A DNA stretch of 34,082 nt from a virus (Duplodnaviria; Heunggongvirae; Uroviricota; Caudoviricetes), in the IMG/VR virus record IMGVR_UViG_3300045988_014597, positions 1-34,082 of that record, one strand, 5' to 3'. Below, one piece after another: positions 1 to 34,082 of the stretch. The notes under the pieces were generated by a model that had not been told where the DNA came from, did no database searches, and saw only the letters and a program-made list of their open reading frames with translations. Each line of letters opens with the position of its first letter. Position 1 is the stretch's first letter. A program made the position numbers and the translations under genes.

Positions 1-23
1 CCCTATTATATTGGGGTGTGCAA
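1..23 (-). promoter_or_regulatory. Partial family B promoter (TTGCAC-N17-[TACTAT outside window]) pointing leftward out of the window
   Basis: Reverse complement of 1-23 is TTGCACACCCCAATATAATAGGG, nearly identical to the -35 and spacer of the promoter at 21236-21258. The -10 would lie just before position 1. Confidence 0.45.
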
Positions 24-130
24 GTAGTGTGCTAGAATAAGTTTGCGCCTAGTGTCGCACACGAAAAGCGGGTGGTTCCCGTCTGGCGCATTAACCTTAA
101 CCTGTAACCTCTTAACCAAAGGATTAAAGA

Positions 131-7374: not shown

Positions 7375-9255
7375 ATGTCAAGCGGATGTGGTGACGTTTT
7401 AAGCCTGGCGGATTTACAAACCGCCAAGAAACACCAGATTTTCGAGGCCGAGGTTATCACGGGTAAGTCCGGTGGGGTTGCTGGTGGTGCTGATATTGAT
7501 TACGCGACCAATGCGGTTACGGGTCAGACGCAGAAGACACTCCCGGCGATACTGCGCGATACTGGGTTTTCTCCGGTATCGTGGGATTTTTCCACAGGCG
7601 GAACGTTAACAGTTAATGACCGCGACAAAGTGGTTTATGACCCTGTAAGCAAAACGTGGTATTCATACACCGGTACACTGCCGGTGACCGTTCCAGCTGG
7701 GTTTAACCCCGTGGGCAGTGCTGACTGGAAACCCCAGACGGACCCAGATTTGAGGGAAGAACTAGCGGATACCAGTAGTATTGTTAATGGTGATGCTTTA
7801 GTGGGAGTGCGCCAGCCTTTTGCCGGTGCTGTTTCCCGTACTCAGCATGATAAAAATAAAGAATATGTATCTGTTACTGATTTCATCACGCCGGGTGAGT
7901 CAGACTCTGCGGATAAGACTTACGCGTTCCAAGCGGCTGTCGACTCTCTTACATCTGCGGGTGGTGAAATTCACATTCCAAATGGTGGATTTTGGGTAGT
8001 AGAGGGTATTGTAACTCTTAATAAATCAGTAACTATAAGAGGGTCAGGGTCTACCCCAACTACGTTAATTAAAAAAAGTAACACAAATTCCACGTTTTTT
8101 AATGTGGCGGAGGAGTCATGCTCCATCCGCGACCTACGATTGATAGGTGCTGCGGGTTCTACCGGTGGTTTCGCGATCACAACGGCGACAAACGCAAGTC
8201 GTCTCCATATTGATAACGTGCAGATTCGAGCTACGCACAGTGGTATAAATCTTAAAGCAAATTTATTTTCGTTGTCACATATAGAAATCGTGGACATTAA
8301 CTCACCCGGTGGGGTAGGAATTGAGGTAGACCAATCCGGCGTAGTAGACGGGGTTGGCCTCATCACATCAACTGTTATACAGAACGGCGATGGTGTAGAA
8401 CCCTACGCAGGCATATTTCTAAGGCACGCTATCGGCATCCTTATATCTGATACTCAGTTGATGCAGGCAGGTAAAGCGATGGTAATGCAGCCCGGAGCTA
8501 CTCAGGGTGTCAGCTCTATAAAAATAGTTAATACATATTTTGATACATCAGATGATGGTGGGCTTTTTATTGATAATACCTCCGGCGGGGATATCTCCCG
8601 TATAACAATCGCCGATTCTTGGTTAGCAAGCAGTAAAAACAGTTCCGGGTTAGTTATTCAGGCCGGGTCCAATATCCGTGGCCTCAAAGTATCCTCTTGC
8701 GAATTCTATGACAGCATTACCGGATTAAACGTAGGTGATAATACTGTAGTGCAAAATTTAGACGTAAGTGATTGTGTGTTTTCTGGGCACACAGCCGCGG
8801 ATGTTTCAATAGGCACTAACGTTTCAAATTTCTCGTTCACTAATTGTCGTTCTGGTGCCCTAGGTGGTTTCGCCGCTTCCCCATTTGGGTTATATATAAA
8901 CCCTGGCTGCGGCAACTTTAGCGTAATAGGTAATGAATTCCATGCTATAAACGATGCATCATACCCCTCTAGCGGGGTACTTATCGCCGATAACCGCCAA
9001 TGGGGCTTCGCTCAGGTTACATATGACCCTCCCGTAATCGCTCCAGTAACAAGTATAGAGAGCACAATAGGTGTACCGGGGGCCAGGCCAGGCGATGTAG
9101 TTGATATATCGTTTACCACAGATTTACAGGGGGTTCTTCTCCTTGGTTGGGTATCTGGTAACGATGTTGTGTCGTTCAGGATGTTTAATAGCACAGGTGC
9201 TAATAGGGATTTAGGGGCAGGAATAATTAAGGCAAGAATAAAAAGAATGTCATAA
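7375..9255 (+). CDS. Tailspike / tail fibre with pectate-lyase-like right-handed beta-helix (putative depolymerase), 626 aa
   Basis: N-terminal region of about 130 aa followed by repetitive beta-helix-like segments (IRDLRLIG, NVQIRATHSG, SSCEFYDS, SDCVFSGHT). The 3' two thirds is visibly AT-richer than neighbours. Confidence 0.7.
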   Translation: MSSGCGDVLSLADLQTAKKHQIFEAEVITGKSGGVAGGADIDYATNAVTGQTQKTLPAILRDTGFSPVSWDFSTGGTLTVNDRDKVVYDPVSKTWYSYTGTLPVTVPAGFNPVGSADWKPQTDPDLREELADTSSIVNGDALVGVRQPFAGAVSRTQHDKNKEYVSVTDFITPGESDSADKTYAFQAAVDSLTSAGGEIHIPNGGFWVVEGIVTLNKSVTIRGSGSTPTTLIKKSNTNSTFFNVAEESCSIRDLRLIGAAGSTGGFAITTATNASRLHIDNVQIRATHSGINLKANLFSLSHIEIVDINSPGGVGIEVDQSGVVDGVGLITSTVIQNGDGVEPYAGIFLRHAIGILISDTQLMQAGKAMVMQPGATQGVSSIKIVNTYFDTSDDGGLFIDNTSGGDISRITIADSWLASSKNSSGLVIQAGSNIRGLKVSSCEFYDSITGLNVGDNTVVQNLDVSDCVFSGHTAADVSIGTNVSNFSFTNCRSGALGGFAASPFGLYINPGCGNFSVIGNEFHAINDASYPSSGVLIADNRQWGFAQVTYDPPVIAPVTSIESTIGVPGARPGDVVDISFTTDLQGVLLLGWVSGNDVVSFRMFNSTGANRDLGAGIIKARIKRMS

Positions 9256-9260
9256 AACTA

Positions 9261-9285
9261 AGGCCCCGTTTGGGGCCTTTTCTCT
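9261..9285. terminator. Bidirectional intrinsic terminator between convergent tail and replication modules
   Basis: AGGCCCC-GTTT-GGGGCCT hairpin flanked by an A-run upstream and a T-run downstream. Confidence 0.7.
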
Positions 9286-9612: not shown

Positions 9613-11033
9613 TTCTTACCTCGTCTCTTCATGTAATTAAGCAATTCTTCCTGTACTGATTTCTTCTCGTCGGTACGCGCGGCAACAACCTCGTCCAGCG
9701 TGTCTTTAGCGACGATGTGATAGAGGAACACCGGGCGCTCGTGGCCTGCCTGTTTCTGGCGTACGGGACCTATACGCTCGACAACCTGCAAATAGTGCTC
9801 AAGGTTCCAGCCTTGCGAGATGAACGCCAGATGATGCCCGCCGTCCTGTAAATTCAAACCATGGCCCGCTGACGCAGGATGTACGCATAGGATTTCGATT
9901 TCTCCACGGTTCCACGCTTCCATCTGCTTATTACCCTTAGCGCCTTTGGCGAATGCCTGGGCCTGCGGGAATCTCTTAAGGATGCGCTCCAGTTCGTGCT
10001 TAAACTGATAAGCCACAAGCAACGGCGCACCCTGTAACTCCTCGACAATGGACTCAAGCGCATCCAGTTTCGTGTCGTGCACTTTCTCCCAGTCTTTCGT
10101 TGCTTCTCCATCAGGCCCCGACACATACACGGCACCAGAAGCAATCTGCAGACACTTCGACGTCTTCGCCGCCGCGTTAGCCGCTTCAACTTCCCCGCTC
10201 TCGAGTTCCGCGAATAGCTTCTCCTCCATATCGATGTACGCCTGACGCGCTTTCTTCGGCAGGTCGATTTCAACCGGTACAATAATCGGCGCTTCACAGC
10301 CGAACCATTCGGCGGCGTCAATCGTGAGACTAATGTCCTTCATCTTCTGATGAATTTCATTATCTGCGCCCGGGCGTGCATGGTATTCACGGGCCATCGC
10401 TGACTTACCTTTCTGTACCGAGTTGAACCAGCGGTCGGTGAATGCTGTGTACGATGAACCAAGTCGCTCGCCTGCGTCGATAAACCAGTTCTGCCCCCAC
10501 AAGTCCTTGAGGCCGTTCGGTGATGGTGTACCTGTCAGGTTAATGAACCGCTTAACCTTACCGAACGCCACTTTACTAAGCGCCTTTGCCCGCTTGCTGC
10601 CGCCTGAACGGCTGCGGAATGATTTCAGCTTCGTGCTTTCATCGGCAACAATAACTGTAAAAGGCCAGTCGTCTTTGCCGTAGTAGTCAATCAGCCACTC
10701 GATAACTTCGTAGTTGGTACAAATCACATTGGCGTCAGACTCCAGCGCCGCGATACGGCGCTTCTCTGAACCTGTCGCATCTACGACATTCAGACACGGG
10801 AATTGCCATTTCTCTTGTTCTGCTGGCCATGTGCCGGACGCAACGCGCAGCGGGGCGAGTATTAACACGCGGTCATCGTCCGTAAGTTGCCCATTGCGAA
10901 ACAGGCGGTTGAGTACCCACATTGTCGACGAGGTCTTGCCGCCGCCCATACCGCACCAGATATTGCAACGTGGGTGCTGTAGTATAAACGACGTCATTAT
11001 TTTCTGGTACTCGCGCCTTTGAAACTTAGACAT
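9609..11033 (-). CDS. SNF2/DEAD-like ATP-dependent helicase, 474 aa
   Basis: Walker A CGMGGGKTS and a DExx box (VIVADEST), plus a C-terminal helicase region. Confidence 0.8.
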   Translation of the reverse strand: MSKFQRREYQKIMTSFILQHPRCNIWCGMGGGKTSSTMWVLNRLFRNGQLTDDDRVLILAPLRVASGTWPAEQEKWQFPCLNVVDATGSEKRRIAALESDANVICTNYEVIEWLIDYYGKDDWPFTVIVADESTKLKSFRSRSGGSKRAKALSKVAFGKVKRFINLTGTPSPNGLKDLWGQNWFIDAGERLGSSYTAFTDRWFNSVQKGKSAMAREYHARPGADNEIHQKMKDISLTIDAAEWFGCEAPIIVPVEIDLPKKARQAYIDMEEKLFAELESGEVEAANAAAKTSKCLQIASGAVYVSGPDGEATKDWEKVHDTKLDALESIVEELQGAPLLVAYQFKHELERILKRFPQAQAFAKGAKGNKQMEAWNRGEIEILCVHPASAGHGLNLQDGGHHLAFISQGWNLEHYLQVVERIGPVRQKQAGHERPVFLYHIVAKDTLDEVVAARTDEKKSVQEELLNYMKRRGKK

Positions 11034-11709
11034 GATTAGCCTCGTAAACTGCTTTTGCGAAACCCCGCGGAGTAAGGCTGCGGATTGTTTTTGTCCGCAC
11101 TGATTTACCGCCTAATTTATTGTGTTGGTCTGAGTACCCATCACCAACGGCAACACATGATTTAACGGGCATAACAAAACCGTTACCAGCCCAAATACAT
11201 GTCTTCTTAGGGTACGCGTCCCGAGGTTTTATGTATTCAGGGAACATTGGATGCGTGTCGTCTTCCGGTAAATACCCGCCGTATTCGTACGGATTGAATA
11301 CATAATCAGGCTTACGCCATAAAGACGAAAGAACGCTAACCGGGTTCTCAATCATATAAGGTACGTTGTACTTTTTAGCAAGACGCGCCGCCACTTTGCA
11401 TGTAATCACGGCCTCTACCTGAAACGTTGGATTCTTCTTCCGTTTCGTTTCGAAATGCGCAGCACCACTAACGGCTAAATCTGTGCACGGAGGGAACGCG
11501 AAAATAATATCCGGCGCAACGTCGAAGTCGAATTTATTATCAATCCACGCGTTTATATAGTGGATGTTCTCGTGTTCAACTTTCGAACCCAATCGCGCGT
11601 AGTCGCCGTGGTCGGCACCGTCGTAGTTGAAACAATAGCAAGTATGGCCCGCTTCTGCCCACGGTTGGGCCATGAGGCCCGAACCGTCGAACAATGACCA
11701 GATAATCAT
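11026..11709 (-). CDS. Compact DNA (cytosine-5) methyltransferase-like protein, 227 aa
   Basis: C5-methyltransferase signature order: motif I LFDGSG, PC motif FAFPPCTDLAVSG, ENV-like motif MIENP, C-terminal RSLTPRGFAKAV resembling motif IX. Very short, so the target-recognition domain must be minimal. Confidence 0.6.
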   Translation of the reverse strand: MIIWSLFDGSGLMAQPWAEAGHTCYCFNYDGADHGDYARLGSKVEHENIHYINAWIDNKFDFDVAPDIIFAFPPCTDLAVSGAAHFETKRKKNPTFQVEAVITCKVAARLAKKYNVPYMIENPVSVLSSLWRKPDYVFNPYEYGGYLPEDDTHPMFPEYIKPRDAYPKKTCIWAGNGFVMPVKSCVAVGDGYSDQHNKLGGKSVRTKTIRSLTPRGFAKAVYEANHV

Positions 11710-20926: not shown

Positions 20927-20955
20927 TTGACTTTTCACTGAAAATATGCTAAGCT
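20927..20955 (+). promoter_or_regulatory. Strong sigma70-like promoter with extended -10 (TTGACT-N17-TGC-TAAGCT), copy 1
   Basis: TTGACT at 20927-20932, TG at 20947-20948, TAAGCT at 20950-20955. Confidence 0.6.
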
Positions 20956-21037
20956 CCACCTGAGCTTGTGAAGTATGAACAAGCGACCGCGGTGCGGCAG
21001 GAGAACGGAGCGGTGCGTTAGCACTGAGTGTAGTGTC
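20927..21037 (+). repeat. Dispersed direct repeat R1 (promoter plus conserved leader), about 110 bp
   Basis: Aligns with 33971-34082. The first ~66 nt differ at 2 positions; the remainder has two single-base indels and more substitutions. Confidence 0.85.
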
Positions 21038-21177: not shown

Positions 21178-21235
21178 CTGCGTTGCGTACTCTTTTAAGA
21201 AACGAAAGAATCACAACGGCAACGTAACTATTCTC

Positions 21236-21264
21236 TTGCACACCCCAACATAATAGGATACTAT
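21236..21264 (+). promoter_or_regulatory. Family B sigma70-like promoter (TTGCAC-N17-TACTAT) with embedded palindrome AATAG-N4-CTATT
   Basis: Palindrome at 21252-21265; the promoter, leader and start share about 63 of 66 positions with the reverse-strand copy near 33841-33904. Confidence 0.6.
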
Positions 21265-21298
21265 TCACTTATCGAAACGAGACATAAGGAATTTAGAA

Positions 21299-21517
21299 AT
21301 GAACAAAGCGACCGCAAGCGTAGTTTCCGCAATCAAAGAAGTTTACGGCATCGATATTTCAGAGCGCGTAATCATCGGTAATAAGCGCAACTTCTTTACG
21401 TTCGACACCGACGGAATGGATGAAAATGATTTTATCAACGTACAACGTTTCGCTAATGATAGAGGGCTTCGTAACGAGCCTGCAGGTTACAAGAAATTCG
21501 CTATCTACTTTAAATAA
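21299..21517 (+). CDS. Hypothetical protein, 72 aa
   Basis: First ORF after the family B promoter; AAGGA RBS. Confidence 0.6.
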   Translation: MNKATASVVSAIKEVYGIDISERVIIGNKRNFFTFDTDGMDENDFINVQRFANDRGLRNEPAGYKKFAIYFK

Positions 21518-29206: not shown

Positions 29207-30679
29207 ATGTTAACTATGAACGGTCAGAATCAGGGTGTTAAGACTAAACACCGGGAGTGGCTGCATCACTTCGATAAATGGCAGAAGGTGCGCCATGCGC
29301 TTGAGGGAGACCTTATTCGCTATCTTCGCAACGTCGGAAAGAATGAGCCGGACCCGACCTACGCAGCCCAGCGCCAGGAAGAATACGAGAACGGTGCTAT
29401 CTGTTACAACTTCACTAAACGTACCCTGGCGGGGATGGTGGGGTCGGTGATGCGCAAAGACCCTGAGCAGATTATTCCGCCTGAGCTTGAGTATCTGTTA
29501 CGCAACGCCGACGGTTCCGGTGTCGGGCTGTGGCAGCACGCGCAAGACACGCTGATGGAGATTGACTCGGTGGGCCGTGGCGGGTTGCTGGTGGACGCCC
29601 CGGAGACAGCTGCGGCAACGGCCGCCGAACAGAACGCGGGGTTATTAAACCCGACAATCGCATTCTATACCGCGGAGAACATCATCAACTGGCGACTAAC
29701 CCGCATCGGCTCCGTTAACCGTGTGACGATGGTCGTGTTACGTGAGGTGTGGGAATACTCAGAACCGGGCGCAGAGTTCGAAACAAAATTCGGTGAGCAA
29801 TACCGTGTCCTCGATTTAATTGACGGGCGCTACCGCCAGCGCATTTACCGCTTCGATGCAGAAGGTGGCGCACAGGGTGAAGTAAAAGAAATATTCCCGG
29901 AACTTGGCGAACAGTTGCGCGGTAGAATCCCGTTCACGTTCATTGGGGCGAGCAACAACGATGCGACCATCGATGACGCTCCTTTGCTGCCGTTGGCTGA
30001 ACTTAATATCGGGCACTTCCGTAACAGTGCGGACAATGAAGAATCCAGCTTCGTTGTAGGCCAGCCCACTCTGTTCATCGCCCCCGGCGAGAACATGAGT
30101 ACGGAACAGTGGAAAGAAGCCAACCCTCACGGCGTGCGCATGGGGTCGCGCTCAGGCCATAACATCGGGTATGGCGGTAATGCGTTTCTGGTTCAGGCAG
30201 AGGAGAACAACCTGGCCAAACAGAACATGCTGGATAAAGAGAATCAGGCCATCCAGATTGGCGCGCAGCTTATCACCCCGACGCAGCAAATAACCGCTGA
30301 ATCAGCCCGCCTGCAACGAGGCGCCGACACGTCCGTTATGGCAACAATCGCACGGAACGTAAGCATGGCATATACCGATGCGTTGCGCTGGGTTGCTGCG
30401 ATGCTAGGGTTGAGTGAAGGCACAGAGATTGAGTTCAAACTTAACATGGAGTTCTTCCTGCAACCGATGACCGCTCAGGACCGTGCTCAGTGGATGGCGG
30501 ATATTAACGCGGGCCTGCTACCGGCTACCGCTTACTATGCGGCATTGCGTAAGGCTGGCGTAACTGACTGGACGGACGAGGACATTCAGAACGCTATAGA
30601 GGACGCTCCGTTGCCGTTGGGCGCGGTTACTCAGGTGGCGGGGGAGATTCCTCAGTCGGCGCAGCATCAACAGGAGTAA
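29207..30679 (+). CDS. Portal protein, 490 aa
   Basis: Size and position immediately after the large terminase; acidic C-terminal region. Confidence 0.75.
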   Translation: MLTMNGQNQGVKTKHREWLHHFDKWQKVRHALEGDLIRYLRNVGKNEPDPTYAAQRQEEYENGAICYNFTKRTLAGMVGSVMRKDPEQIIPPELEYLLRNADGSGVGLWQHAQDTLMEIDSVGRGGLLVDAPETAAATAAEQNAGLLNPTIAFYTAENIINWRLTRIGSVNRVTMVVLREVWEYSEPGAEFETKFGEQYRVLDLIDGRYRQRIYRFDAEGGAQGEVKEIFPELGEQLRGRIPFTFIGASNNDATIDDAPLLPLAELNIGHFRNSADNEESSFVVGQPTLFIAPGENMSTEQWKEANPHGVRMGSRSGHNIGYGGNAFLVQAEENNLAKQNMLDKENQAIQIGAQLITPTQQITAESARLQRGADTSVMATIARNVSMAYTDALRWVAAMLGLSEGTEIEFKLNMEFFLQPMTAQDRAQWMADINAGLLPATAYYAALRKAGVTDWTDEDIQNAIEDAPLPLGAVTQVAGEIPQSAQHQQE

Positions 30680-30684
30680 AATGG

Positions 30685-30706
30685 AAAGGCCCCATTATGG
30701 GGCTTT
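30685..30706. terminator. Bidirectional intrinsic terminator between the portal gene and the convergent methyltransferase gene
   Basis: AAAGGCCCC-ATTAT-GGGGCTTT; the methyltransferase stop codon lies in the loop. Confidence 0.65.
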
Positions 30707-31447
30707 AGCTTTATATGCTTCAGATATGCGTCTTCTGGCTATACGGAAGTAGTCGCGGTCTAGTTCCATACCTATAAACTTCCGGTTTGTGTTCGCACAC
30801 GCAACTCCGGTTGTCCCGCTACCCATACAGTTATCAAGAACTGTATCCCCTTCGTTTGTGTATGTTTTAATCAGGTATTCCATGAGTGCTACTGGCTTTT
30901 GTGTCGGGTGTACTGTGCCACCCTCATTATCAAAACGTAAAACAGAATCTGGGTATCCCGTTTGCGTCTGACGATACGTATCTTTGTGAGAAGGCCGGGT
31001 GTTAACGAAGGCCCTGTCTTTCCTAATATTGGTAAGGGTTACGTCACACTGCCTGACCCCTTGCGGGTTGTATGCCATACGGCGTTCACTTTTATTCGCT
31101 GTGGTCCCTTTGCTGAAAACCGCGATTTCCTCATGCCCTCTTAATGGCTTATTTTTAGCATTAAATACATCACCTTTTCTGCTCTTCACCCATATCCAGC
31201 AGTATTTAAACATATCCATATTTGACGCTATAAGGGCTGTGGTGAACGGCTGCGCACAGGTTAAAACTATAGCACCACGGCCCGTTATTATTCGGGAATA
31301 ATGAAACCATAGTTGGTCAAATGGAAGCACACTATCCCACTTACATGAAGTGGTGCCATAAGGTAAATCGCACAGTATAAGGTCGATACTTTTGTCCGGT
31401 ATGCCGGCCATCAACTCCAAACAATCCCCACGTTTCAAAGTAAACAC
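30695..31447 (-). CDS. DNA methyltransferase, N6-adenine / N4-cytosine family, 250 aa, GTG start
   Basis: Catalytic tetrapeptide region LILCDLPYG (a DPPY variant) N-terminal to the SAM motif VLDNCMGSGTTGVA; GGAGG RBS; own family B-type promoter. Confidence 0.8.
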   Translation of the reverse strand: MFTLKRGDCLELMAGIPDKSIDLILCDLPYGTTSCKWDSVLPFDQLWFHYSRIITGRGAIVLTCAQPFTTALIASNMDMFKYCWIWVKSRKGDVFNAKNKPLRGHEEIAVFSKGTTANKSERRMAYNPQGVRQCDVTLTNIRKDRAFVNTRPSHKDTYRQTQTGYPDSVLRFDNEGGTVHPTQKPVALMEYLIKTYTNEGDTVLDNCMGSGTTGVACANTNRKFIGMELDRDYFRIARRRISEAYKAKAP

Positions 31448-31475
31448 TTTAACACCTCCTGTTTAAGTTAGCAGA

Positions 31476-31504
31476 ATAGTACCCTATTATATTGGTGTCT
31501 GCAA
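31476..31504 (-). promoter_or_regulatory. Family B-type promoter (TTGCAG-N17-TACTAT) with embedded palindrome GAATAG-N4-CTATT, driving the methyltransferase
   Basis: Reverse strand reads TTGCAGACACCAATATAATAGGGTACTAT; palindrome at 31474-31488. Confidence 0.6.
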
Positions 31505-31548
31505 ATATTATTTTTATGCGTTACACTGTCGATACTACAGGAGGGCCT

Positions 31549-32592
31549 ATGAGCTTACTTACATCCTTAATCAGCCACCAGATATGGCTGCAACGCGCCG
31601 CATCCGGTGAAGTGAAAGACCTCACACCGTTCATTAAGGAGATGCGGGACGAAATCAAACGGCAGGTGCTGTTATTCGGCGACGATGGCCGTAGCACTGC
31701 GCGACTGAATAAACTGTTACGCGACCTCGAAGAAGCACTGACCGGGCTTACAGGTGACTGGCAAACAAAGCTGACAGAAGACCTTAAGGATCTGGCGGCG
31801 TATGAGGCTGAGTGGAATGTGAAGACACTGACCGCCAACGTTAACACGGAATTTGTTACACCTACCGCCGAACAGGTGTGGGCCGCTGCCGAGTTTCAGC
31901 CTCTGTCACTTAGTGACAAGCCTGTTGACTTCACTAAGCTGATGTCAGGTTGGGGTGAAGCGGAGGTCGCGCGCCTGGTAACTGGCGTTAAGATGGGCTT
32001 TGTACAGGGCCAGACAACGCGGCAGATTGTTAAAAGTGTTGTCGGCGCTGGCGGGCTGGCTGACATCTCCGAGCGTAACGCCGCTACAGTAATACGTACC
32101 GCACTGTCCCACGTATCCAACGAAGCCCGTAACGAGACGTACCGCCAGAACGACGACATCATCGAGAAATACGAGTGGGTGTCGACGCTGGACAGCCGTA
32201 CCAGTACGATTTGCAGGGCCAGAGACGGGATGACGTGGGAAATCGGTAAAGGTCCGAGGCCCCCAGCCCATCCGAATTGCCGAAGTACCACTGCGCCCGT
32301 AATCAGTTCGGAGTTCGACTTCCTCGATAAAGGCGCAAAACGCGCGGCTAAAGGCGCAGACGGCGGCACTCAGGTAAGCGCAGACACCACTTACTACGAG
32401 TTCCTGAAACAACAACCAGCGTGGTTTCAAGATGAAGCGCTCGGCCCGGTGCGAGGTAAGATTTTCCGTAACAGCGGTATAACGCCGGAAGAGTTTCGCG
32501 TAATATCTGTAGATGGTTTCGGGAATCCGCTGACGCTTAAGCAGATGGCGGAACTCGATAAACGTGTTGCTGATTATCTGAAAGGGGAATAA
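31549..32592 (+). CDS. Head morphogenesis protein (SPP1 gp7 / Mu F-like), about 347 aa
   Basis: C-terminal signature YEWVSTLDSRTSTICRARDGMTW...PPAHPNCRSTT; GGAGGG RBS before ATG 31549. Confidence 0.85.
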   Translation: MSLLTSLISHQIWLQRAASGEVKDLTPFIKEMRDEIKRQVLLFGDDGRSTARLNKLLRDLEEALTGLTGDWQTKLTEDLKDLAAYEAEWNVKTLTANVNTEFVTPTAEQVWAAAEFQPLSLSDKPVDFTKLMSGWGEAEVARLVTGVKMGFVQGQTTRQIVKSVVGAGGLADISERNAATVIRTALSHVSNEARNETYRQNDDIIEKYEWVSTLDSRTSTICRARDGMTWEIGKGPRPPAHPNCRSTTAPVISSEFDFLDKGAKRAAKGADGGTQVSADTTYYEFLKQQPAWFQDEALGPVRGKIFRNSGITPEEFRVISVDGFGNPLTLKQMAELDKRVADYLKGE

Positions 32593-33053
32593 TGATGGGC
32601 TTTTTCAAAGTAACTGATGTGCCGTCGCGTCGCGTAGTTCAGTACGCCCGAGTGTCTGGCTCTGGCGAGAACGTGGTATTTATTGAAGATGAAAGTGTAC
32701 TAGGCGCACCAGTAGACGATATGCCGTTTGCAGATAAAACCGGTATTGCGCTGCCAGCGGCGGGTATGCTTTACGAGATTCCGTATCTGGCAGACGCTGG
32801 CGACGTGTATTTCTCTGTGCAACCAAAAGATGCAGAACTGACCGATGGCAGCGCAACCATCACTGTCGAGGTTAAGGCGGGCAAAGCGCCGTATGTGCTG
32901 ACCTGGTACAAAGACGGTAAGGAAGTGGTAAATGCCCCGGAAGAGGCTTTGTCTCTGACGGTTAATGCAGTTGGTGAATACTTCGTTAAAGCCACCGATG
33001 CTGATGGTGTAGAGGCGGTAAGCAAAGCGGCGAAGGTTACTAAGCCAGAATGA
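32592..33053 (+). CDS. Ig-like domain protein, 153 aa
   Basis: C-terminal half resembles an Ig-like fold (ITVEVKAGKAPYVLTWYKDGKEV...EYFVKATDADG). Role as a decoration or structural protein not determinable. Confidence 0.5.
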   Translation: MMGFFKVTDVPSRRVVQYARVSGSGENVVFIEDESVLGAPVDDMPFADKTGIALPAAGMLYEIPYLADAGDVYFSVQPKDAELTDGSATITVEVKAGKAPYVLTWYKDGKEVVNAPEEALSLTVNAVGEYFVKATDADGVEAVSKAAKVTKPE

Positions 33054-33054
33054 T

Positions 33055-33077
33055 AAAAGGCCCCATTACGGGGCCTT
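33055..33077. terminator. Bidirectional intrinsic terminator
   Basis: AAAGGCCCC-ATTAC-GGGGCCTT, nearly identical to the hairpin at 30685-30706; the stop of the convergent reverse-strand gene lies in the loop. Confidence 0.65.
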
Positions 33078-33374
33078 AACTTTCCATACTTCCCTTAGCG
33101 CTACGAGTTTATGATTACCGATATCCCTTGATATTATTGAATCTGTAAAACCATTGAACCATGATTTCATCCAGTCAGACGTTCTGAAATCTGAGTATAG
33201 AATATGTATTGTTTGCGGGGCGTCTACATCGTAATGCTGGCACACATAAACACAACCGCTGGCGAATATAACAGCTTTAAACGTATCGTAGTCTTCTGAA
33301 TCCGGGAACTCGCTAGAGTCCCCGACAAGATATCTGTACGCGTATTTTTTAGTAGTCTTCTTTCTTTTCCGCAT
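33066..33374 (-). CDS. Hypothetical protein, 102 aa
   Basis: ORF in an AT-richer reverse-strand block; basic N-terminus. Confidence 0.5.
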   Translation of the reverse strand: MRKRKKTTKKYAYRYLVGDSSEFPDSEDYDTFKAVIFASGCVYVCQHYDVDAPQTIHILYSDFRTSDWMKSWFNGFTDSIISRDIGNHKLVALREVWKVKAP

Positions 33375-33383
33375 GGCGATTTC

Positions 33384-33623
33384 TCAGAAGTGTATTACTG
33401 GTTGTTTAAACTTCCAGTCACAATCTACCTGTTTAATAACGCCTTTCGCAACAAGGCTGTCTATGAACTCCTGACCTGAATTCGTCTTGTACCATGTATA
33501 TCTGTTCCCGACTTTTACGCCGGGTAGGCTATGGTACACAACACCGTCAACCACCATAAAAGAGACGCCGATAGTACCTTTTTCTGCATAGAGTTTTTTA
33601 CCCGCACTGCTCATGTAGCACAT
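33384..33623 (-). CDS. Hypothetical protein, 79 aa
   Basis: ORF in the same block. Confidence 0.5.
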   Translation of the reverse strand: MCYMSSAGKKLYAEKGTIGVSFMVVDGVVYHSLPGVKVGNRYTWYKTNSGQEFIDSLVAKGVIKQVDCDWKFKQPVIHF

Positions 33624-33655
33624 CTCCCACGTAGATAGTTAGTAAGGTAAGGCCC

Positions 33656-33841
33656 TTAGGCCTTACGAATTGTATACCCATACCCAAGGTAGCCGTTTTT
33701 CTCTTGCATAGCGGAGGCGCGAAGCAGAGCAGCATTCTCACCTTTAACTACGGCGACCACATAATCGGTAGCGTCCGGACCGTTTTCTACAACTTCATAC
33801 GCCTGTACGTTCTTGGTGGTAAGTTCATATGTGTTAGTCAT
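33656..33841 (-). CDS. Hypothetical protein, 61 aa
   Basis: Driven by a family B promoter and leader that matches the + strand cassette at 21236-21301. Confidence 0.55.
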   Translation of the reverse strand: MTNTYELTTKNVQAYEVVENGPDATDYVVAVVKGENAALLRASAMQEKNGYLGYGYTIRKA

Positions 33842-33875
33842 TTCTAAATTCCTTATCTCTCGTTTCGATAAGTGA

Positions 33876-33904
33876 ATAGTACCCTATTATGTTGGTGTGT
33901 GCAA
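33876..33904 (-). promoter_or_regulatory. Family B promoter (TTGCAC-N17-TACTAT) with embedded palindrome GAATAG-N4-CTATT
   Basis: Reverse strand reads TTGCACACACCAACATAATAGGGTACTAT; palindrome at 33874-33888. Confidence 0.6.
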
Positions 33905-33970
33905 ACTATTTATTTACCTATTCCAATTATCCCACTAAATTGTAAATGTTGGAATAAACTATTCGAATAG

Positions 33971-33999
33971 TTGACTTTTCACTAAAAATGTGCTAAGCT
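33971..33999 (+). promoter_or_regulatory. Strong sigma70-like promoter with extended -10 (TTGACT-N17-TGC-TAAGCT), copy 2
   Basis: Same architecture as 20927-20955; preceded by the perfect palindrome CTATTCGAATAG at 33959-33970. Confidence 0.6.
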
Positions 34000-34082
34000 C
34001 CACCTGAGCTTGTGAAGTATGAACAAGCGACCGCGGCGCGGGCAGGTAACGGAGCGGGACGTAAGTCCTGAGTGTAGTTACG
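33971..34082 (+). repeat. Dispersed direct repeat R2 (promoter plus conserved leader), truncated by the window end
   Basis: Aligns with 20927-21037. Confidence 0.85.

Follow-up and report, generated by a model that had tools for sequence, protein, structure and literature searches.

Morons, a concept drawn from the comparative genomics of the lambdoid phages HK97 and HK022, are extra transcription units in temperate phages that are often expressed from the prophage. Here, we describe an island of three small reverse-strand genes in the 34,082-nt virus sequence IMGVR_UViG_3300045988_014597 from IMG/VR (Caudoviricetes; positions 1 to 34,082, the whole of which is hereafter referred to as “the window”). 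The island, whose genes are designated C, B and A in the order of their predicted transcription (collectively, “the trio”), is overall best explained as a self-contained, moron-like unit that probably sits, in antisense orientation, in one of two recombination hot spots of the phage head module. It is a real accessory island of a known kind; what it offers in addition is a clear, standardised cassette architecture.

Two further types of variable phage loci come close to this arrangement. In T4-like phages, promoter-early stem-loop (PeSL) motifs, in which a sigma-70-like promoter and a stem-loop flank variable ORFan cargo, coincide with the borders of segments that have been inserted, deleted or replaced among close relatives, implying a shuffling by homologous recombination at these motifs (PMC2839356, PMC4122927). 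Furthermore, the accessory regions of phages are enriched in counter-defence genes, as described in a study that makes no mention of the Guernseyvirinae (bioRxiv 10.1101/2023.04.06.535777).

With morons, the island shares the insertion of a unit between genes that are adjacent in relatives (empty gaps of 89-90 bp and 59 bp), a base composition unlike that of its flanks, a non-essential character and a sporadic distribution. The promoter and terminator expected of a moron are predicted here from conserved motifs (TTTGCA-18-TACTAT; hairpin followed by UUUUAUCAUU). Unlike classical morons, it resides in a virulent siphophage, runs antisense to the operon, comprises three genes and possesses standardised ends common to many cargoes. 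The likeness to PeSLs concerns a promoter and a stem-loop that are repeated in the genome and mark the end points of indels and replacements, with the same cargo occurring at both sites. However, in a PeSL both elements are fused into one composite motif, which is situated between tandem, co-oriented genes in hyperplastic regions of large myovirus genomes, whereas in the cassette some 800 bp separate the promoter at one end of an inverted unit from the terminator at the other, and the setting is two discrete gaps in the head module of a 44-kb siphophage. By analogy, the cassette seems to work like a PeSL without being a member of that family, because its promoter and terminator are not fused and its genomic setting is different. 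As in the described accessory regions, conserved core genes flank highly variable small genes, and the co-cargo includes a methyltransferase and a DpdA-like protein, i.e., functions of the anti-restriction type; unlike the anti-defence genes of these regions, the trio resembles no characterised anti-defence protein.

The window region 32500-34082 matched 193 phage records at 80-95% identity, comprising Escherichia coli and Salmonella siphophages of the Guernseyvirinae (Kagunavirus, Jerseyvirus), and the source of the window can be assigned to a virulent, Kagunavirus-like siphophage. Trio carriage amounts to about 2% of the related phages, with about 98% lacking it. Gene A is contained in 4 of 50,697 phage records, which represent three phages, and the trio in a single one of 38 IMG/VR relatives that had been recovered via their Hoc-like protein; record OQ696342 is a carrier. 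The BASEL Kagunaviruses Bas70-76 are without the trio, with a direct check made for Bas72 only, and neither 5,426 complete E. coli genomes nor the plasmid collection yielded it.

End-to-end alignment of the block 33055-33915 at 87-92% identity (blastn) was obtained with phiWAO78-1, vB_EcoS-K1_SXAU_B4 and metagenome contigs, and partial alignment with Salmonella phage pink. In these three phages, the trio is located between the portal gene and the Mu-F-like head-morphogenesis gene (portal/Mu-F gap) and not after the Hoc-like gene. The metagenome contigs show an invariant order of genes for 61, 76 and 102 amino acids (aa), which in L005-L009 and L011 again occupy the gap between the portal (DUF4055) and Mu-F-like genes. 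This placement applies to 10 of 12 occurrences of the unit. The arrangement of the window, with the trio after the Hoc-like gene and a methyltransferase in the portal/Mu-F gap, was found elsewhere only in L010. Decay variants are also present: gene A is frameshifted in phiWAO78-1 and gene B is largely deleted in phage pink, while gene C is intact everywhere.

Because the block is rare, has empty counterpart sites and a second locus, and carries its own predicted promoter and terminator, it is in good probability an acquired, autonomously expressed accessory block, as had been proposed in the initial annotation of the window. In the presence/absence comparison with relatives, the trio genes proved to be neither core nor structural. 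The compositional contrast that had been proposed along with this is likewise real, if moderate: the G+C content is 43.8% in the island, 50.5% in the window and 51-56% in the flanking portal, Mu-F-like and Hoc-like genes, and the island ranks within the lowest 4.9% of all 776-nt segments, by which a flat profile is ruled out. A placement between head genes holds for the upstream side, where the Hoc-like gene is found; downstream of the island site, in a part that lies past the end of the window, annotated relatives have a small open reading frame (ORF) and two annotated spanins, followed by the genes for the scaffold and the major capsid protein.

A hot-spot map based on four conserved anchors across 49 related loci revealed how cargo is accommodated at the two sites. 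Empty alleles exist at both: 24 loci have a portal/Mu-F gap of 59 bp (46-62 bp in two of them), and in 10 loci the Hoc-like gene is separated from the next promoter downstream by 89-90 bp; with cargo, the gaps reach sizes between about 250 and 1,450 bp. Occupied sites start with the hairpin AAAGGCCCC-N(4-5)-GGGGCCTTA and end with GAATAGTACCCTATTATATTGGTGTCTGCAAA. Both of these end motifs, i.e., terminator and promoter, are present in 48 of 56 occupied sites, the terminator hairpin bounding nearly all of them, while the promoter is present in none of the 34 empty ones. The distance from the promoter end to the right-hand anchor is fixed, with 25 nt and 66 nt at the respective sites.

The cargo enclosed by these shared ends belongs to at least 25 unrelated families, four of which occur at both sites, namely the trio, the methyltransferase, a 173-aa sliding-clamp-like protein and a 57-60-aa protein. 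Recognisable cargo comprises the N6/N4 methyltransferase, a DpdA-like protein together with a Vut_1/YhhQ-like transporter, an endonuclease VII-like protein, a KilA-N protein and a lipoprotein; most others are ORFans. In the window, the methyltransferase forms a sister cassette in the portal/Mu-F gap, and the same methyltransferase is found in the Hoc-side gap of L021 and L024. The methyltransferase and gene A have their last eight codons in common (E-[AV]-[YW]-K-[AV]-K-A-P-stop), running into the terminator; therefore, the shared left end extends into coding sequence. A second methyltransferase, apparently a core gene, is encoded at window positions 11026-11709. The 1,454-bp portal/Mu-F gap of L023 contains a homologue of a DpdA-like queuine tRNA-ribosyltransferase (phrog_887, E 3e-84) and the Vut_1/YhhQ-like transporter, with a cargo product ending in ...KTKAP; this content suggests a 7-deazaguanine DNA-modification, i.e., anti-restriction, module that travels as a cassette.

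Two further copies of the end motifs were observed in the window. At positions 1-26, shortly before a tail-assembly-chaperone gene (131-547), the cassette promoter occurs in truncated form, which points to a third hot spot for cassettes, situated in the tail module and cut by the start of the window. A further member of the AAAGGCCCC…GGGGCCTTA terminator family is found at 9259-9280, directly 3' of a 626-aa ORF (7375-9255), where the rightward tail genes converge with the leftward replication genes; judged by its position, this ORF, which is unannotated here, would be a tailspike gene. No description of these hot spots in the Guernseyvirinae was found in the literature, in a search that was incomplete, so that a prior description is possible.

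The coordinates of the cassette and of its surroundings are compiled in Table 1. The initial annotation had postulated a bidirectional terminator and a reused promoter cassette at the borders of the island, and both were recovered. The terminator was detected on the minus strand, and its stem folds on either strand; on the cassette strand, the hairpin is followed by a U-rich tail. The stop codon of gene A lies inside the terminator loop, and the structure is predicted to end both the transcript of the Hoc-like gene and that of the cassette. It shares 84% identity across 37 nt with positions 30685-30721. At the opposite end, positions 33874-33916 are a repeat of 31474-31516 (84% identity), with a partial copy at window positions 1-26; in shuffled sequence, no match is expected for this repeat.

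The cassette promoter itself recurs on the minus strand at 31472-31505, where it precedes the methyltransferase, and on the plus strand at 21235-21268. The latter copy includes the untranslated region (UTR): promoter and UTR at 33838-33904 are 95.5% identical to 21236-21302 over 67 nt, with 3 mismatches in 34 nt. This copy (21235-21301, plus strand) precedes the ORF 21299-21517 (phrog_7673), the first in a rightward run of small ORFs that is followed by the holin, endolysin and terminase genes, i.e., those for lysis and packaging. Within the cassette, the hairpin with the stop codon of gene C in its loop folds in seven cassette variants; its sequence is invariant among these seven. Possibly, it serves as an mRNA stabiliser or as a partial attenuator between C and B, and it may raise the level of C over that of B and A.

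Table 1. Positions of the trio cassette, its predicted expression signals and neighbouring genes in the window
Feature	Position	Strand	Remarks
Whole mobile cassette (terminator, genes A-B-C, promoter)	33056-33905	-	850 bp; ends coincide with repeats D6 and D3
Bidirectional intrinsic terminator	33057-33077	both	Predicted; stem AAGGCCCC/GGGGCCTT, 8-bp G+C; -15.9 and -17.2 kcal/mol
Gene A	33066-33374	-	102 aa; isoelectric point (pI) 8.9 (basic); Lys/Arg-rich N-terminus MRKRKKTTKK
Gene B	33384-33614	-	76 aa; pI 9.3 (basic); start moved from 33623 (79 aa) to ATG 33614
Hairpin at the stop codon of gene C	33647-33666	-	GTAAGGCC-TAAG-GGCCTTAC, 8 bp; stop codon of C in the loop; no U-tract
Gene C	33656-33841	-	61 aa; pI 5.1 (mildly acidic); conserved motif EVVENGPDxxDYVV...NxYLGYGYTIR
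5' UTR with ribosome-binding site	33842-33871	-	AAGGA (33850-33854), 8 nt before ATG 33841 of gene C
Leftward sigma-70-like promoter	33876-33905	-	Predicted; -35 TTTGCA (33900-33905), 18-nt spacer, -10 TACTAT (33876-33881)
Sister cassette with N6/N4 DNA methyltransferase	30685-31505	-	In the portal/Mu-F gap; repeats D3 and D6 as ends
N6/N4 DNA methyltransferase gene	30695-31447	-	PF01555, E 2e-28
Portal gene	29207-30679	+	3' of terminase
Mu-F-like head-morphogenesis gene	31516-32592	+	Start probably ATG 31516
Hoc-like immunoglobulin (Ig) decoration gene	32592-33053	+	153 aa; directly upstream of the island

All three reverse ORFs of the initial annotation (61, 79 and 102 aa) are present in the island, whereas the middle one is most likely shorter by three codons: for gene B, a GGGAG lies 9 nt upstream of the later ATG, and full-length homologues have 76-77 aa, with one exception. 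The ratio of nonsynonymous to synonymous divergence (pN/pS), determined from 3-9 distinct cassette variants with a synonymous divergence of about 23-29%, is 0.074 for A, 0.108 for B and 0.096 for C. Because of these values of 0.07-0.11, A, B and C are genuine protein-coding genes under purifying selection, and a reading as spurious ORFs was rejected.

That the products have no recognisable motif, as initially noted, was confirmed in that A, B and C gave nothing significant in Pfam, NCBIfam, PADLOC and PDB (phmmer and profile searches); among the PHROGs, only the uncharacterised phrog_16707 was matched, by protein C. A hydrophobic segment is missing from all three proteins (maximum Kyte-Doolittle value over 19 residues: 0.93 for A, 1.36 for B and 0.92 for C), as are transmembrane segments, signal peptides and lipoboxes, and the proteins are predicted to be soluble. 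Gene A is close to an ORFan: in a set of 5.8 billion proteins, it forms three clusters. With phmmer, 1.84 billion representatives were searched exhaustively, which returned its own cluster and one credible distant family, P0062, with 34% identity and the common motifs GDSSEFP, C-x-H, D-x-PQ and DS..-RDIG; P0062 was not found in scans of viral and metagenome contigs. Three further matches below E 0.001, which concern short stretches in proteins of 585-2532 aa, were taken as spurious without inspection. An AlphaFold2 model of A, built from a four-sequence alignment, reached a predicted local distance difference test (pLDDT) value of 46 and is unusable.

Gene B has eight close clusters as well as relatives with 36-41% identity among the small early-region ORFs of Drexlerviridae phages. 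Its weak Pfam matches to DUF6322 (E 0.02) and nSTAND_NTPase4 (E 0.03) were dismissed, since they are far under the cut-offs and absent from the Drexlerviridae homologue. Protein C represents a widespread family, phrog_16707; besides many prophages, its carriers are phages of Klebsiella, Cronobacter and Pantoea as well as large Aeromonas phages. In about 20 prophage or temperate-phage loci, including L053-L056 and L060-L070 and comprising Klebsiella, Serratia and Salmonella prophages, a C homologue is found directly 3' of a CI-type repressor (HTH_3 and Peptidase_S24), where it heads the early-left block before DUF2303, ParB-like and exonuclease-like genes. In Klebsiella phage VLCpiS13e, a C homologue belongs to another reverse-strand unit between terminase and portal. 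Outside the Guernseyvirinae, C never occurs together with A or B. An identification of C as ClpS (PDB 4yjm, 3o2o) was rejected, given an identity of 18%, the lack of a Pfam ClpS match at E up to 1, the shorter length of C and a different order of secondary-structure elements outside the core; many unrelated small alpha/beta proteins, among them Dmd, T7 Gp2 and PII-like proteins, reach similar scores, and C matches neither the sequence profile nor the N-degron pocket of ClpS.

Taken together, a leftward sigma-70-type promoter would drive transcription through a UTR with a ribosome-binding site into C, B and A up to the bidirectional terminator, with the host RNA polymerase transcribing the cassette independently of the late head operon. 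The shared ends, about 20-45 nt in length, would serve homologous recombination through which cargo moves from site to site and from one co-infecting phage to another. The phage has recombination proteins of its own, i.e., a Gp2.5-like annealing protein and an exonuclease (phrog_112, phrog_69), which may aid or catalyse such an exchange. An origin from a transposon or a homing endonuclease was rejected, as there is no target-site duplication and no transposase or HNH/LAGLIDADG domain in the trio. The three genes are probably co-cargo rather than one obligate machine, because C is widespread without A or B and because natural variants lack an intact A or B; an obligate three-component system is held to be unlikely given that C homologues outside the Guernseyvirinae are never accompanied by A or B.

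With regard to function, host takeover or counter-defence during lytic growth is the favoured, albeit tentative reading, because the proteins are small, soluble, phage-only, under purifying selection and encoded in hot spots shared with DNA-modification genes, and also because C sits with early genes in temperate phages and Kagunaviruses are reported to be restriction-sensitive. A, B and C would act as small, soluble, non-structural proteins on the host cell. Kagunaviruses are reported to be highly sensitive to restriction-modification systems (PMC11990801); therefore, anti-restriction cargo would be adaptive. The initial annotation had also named superinfection exclusion, and a module for exclusion or inter-phage competition could guard the cell under infection, or the lysogen in the case of temperate relatives, against other phages. 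The position of C homologues right after the CI repressor in lambdoid prophages is that of rexAB-type exclusion genes, and a lipoprotein and a small membrane protein, of a type employed in exclusion, are found among the other cargoes of the hot spots. However, the post-CI position fits the first gene of an early-left lytic operon equally well, the phage itself is virulent, there are no PADLOC matches, and the known Imm, Sp, Cor, Llp and SieA-type proteins are envelope proteins, whereas A, B and C have none of the corresponding features. Exclusion is thus unlikely in general, and its membrane-based form is disfavoured because the three proteins are without a hydrophobic segment.

A different view would regard the cassette as selfish or neutral cargo, which persists by virtue of readily recombining promoter and terminator ends and not because of a benefit for the phage. 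Sporadic occurrence, the decay variants of A and B and the near-ORFan state of A agree with this view; strong purifying selection at the given synonymous divergence does not, nor do the limited space in a 44-kb capsid and the lack of any nuclease, HNH, transposase or toxin-antitoxin signature, which makes mere persistence quite improbable. Selection at the codon level implies that the proteins matter, and it likewise speaks against a unit that acts mainly at the RNA level, by convergent antisense transcription or by a terminator that tunes the flanking late genes, with incidental ORFs. Such a role would be in line with the cassette being convergent with the portal, Mu-F-like and Hoc-like genes and with its bidirectional hairpin being stronger than that of the empty site, but empty sites already have a terminator and cargo of any sequence is tolerated; this reading is the least credible of all. 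Hardly more credible is a role in head assembly or elsewhere in the virion. It would draw on the location, with the Hoc-like decoration gene on one side and the genes for scaffold and capsid on the other, and on the PHROG name “internal head protein”, which belongs to the ORF that follows the sister promoter (21299); yet about 98% of the relatives, with near-identical head genes, lack the trio, which is oppositely oriented, has its own signals and in most carriers occupies a different gap, while C homologues are found in the early or immunity regions of unrelated phages.

Several points weigh against the favoured account of the island. The post-Hoc placement in the window and in L010 may go back to one event. 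Recombination at the shared ends is deduced from the coincidence of end points, and promoter activity, timing and termination are predictions from sequence. The one published RNA sequencing study of a Kagunavirus, which concerns a trio-carrying phage (vB_Eco_K1B4, with 57 ORFs annotated and supplementary tables on host genes), contains no usable data for the trio ORFs. These genes can be dispensed with in some backgrounds, as the natural loss of A or B shows. A, B and C have no homology to known anti-defence, host-takeover or toxin families; anti-defence, while plausible, is derived from the association with other cargo of the same hot spots, and that cargo is functionally mixed.

Some observations concern the surroundings of the cassette. 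The Mu-F-like gene is extended by 700-900 bp in about nine relatives (L013, 2531-4501; L015, L035, L039, L040, L042-L045). Its product in L013 comprises 656 aa and contains an intein-like insert (…TSTT-C/FTAETEL…VKN/C-RARDG…), and a 295-aa ORF is present on the opposite strand; the insert is missing from the Mu-F-like gene of the window. Furthermore, a 108-nt repeat, 88% identical between its copies at window positions 20927-21034 and 33971-34078, combines a rightward promoter (TTGACT-17-TAAGCT) with a conserved leader of some 80 nt. It stands at the head of two rightward gene blocks and is 95-100% conserved in nearly all relatives with this anchor (87% and 92% in two). The repeat matched no Rfam family; it could be a regulatory leader RNA, e.g., for antitermination.

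As a more far-reaching and rather doubtful possibility, the Guernseyvirinae (Kagunavirus, Jerseyvirus) may possess an undescribed standardised plug-in system, in which antisense cassettes with one conserved promoter and one conserved bidirectional terminator are exchanged among at least two, probably three fixed gaps of the structural module and carry counter-defence cargo, e.g., the methyltransferase and the DpdA-like gene, with the trio, including the near-ORFan A, representing a new inhibitor of a host defence or a new set of takeover factors. For the biology of this phage group, the trio provides a list of candidates, i.e., three small, soluble, non-essential and phage-only proteins beside anti-restriction genes in phages reported to be restriction-sensitive, and, with Bas70-76 being devoid of it, it is directly testable. 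The hot spots constitute natural, tolerated insertion sites with expression signals for the engineering of 41-44-kb phages. Current concepts are unchanged by these findings, with the ideas of morons, accessory regions and PeSLs being extended to another group of phages, and the standardised ends would account for the exchange of accessory genes by small siphophages whose structural module is otherwise conserved.

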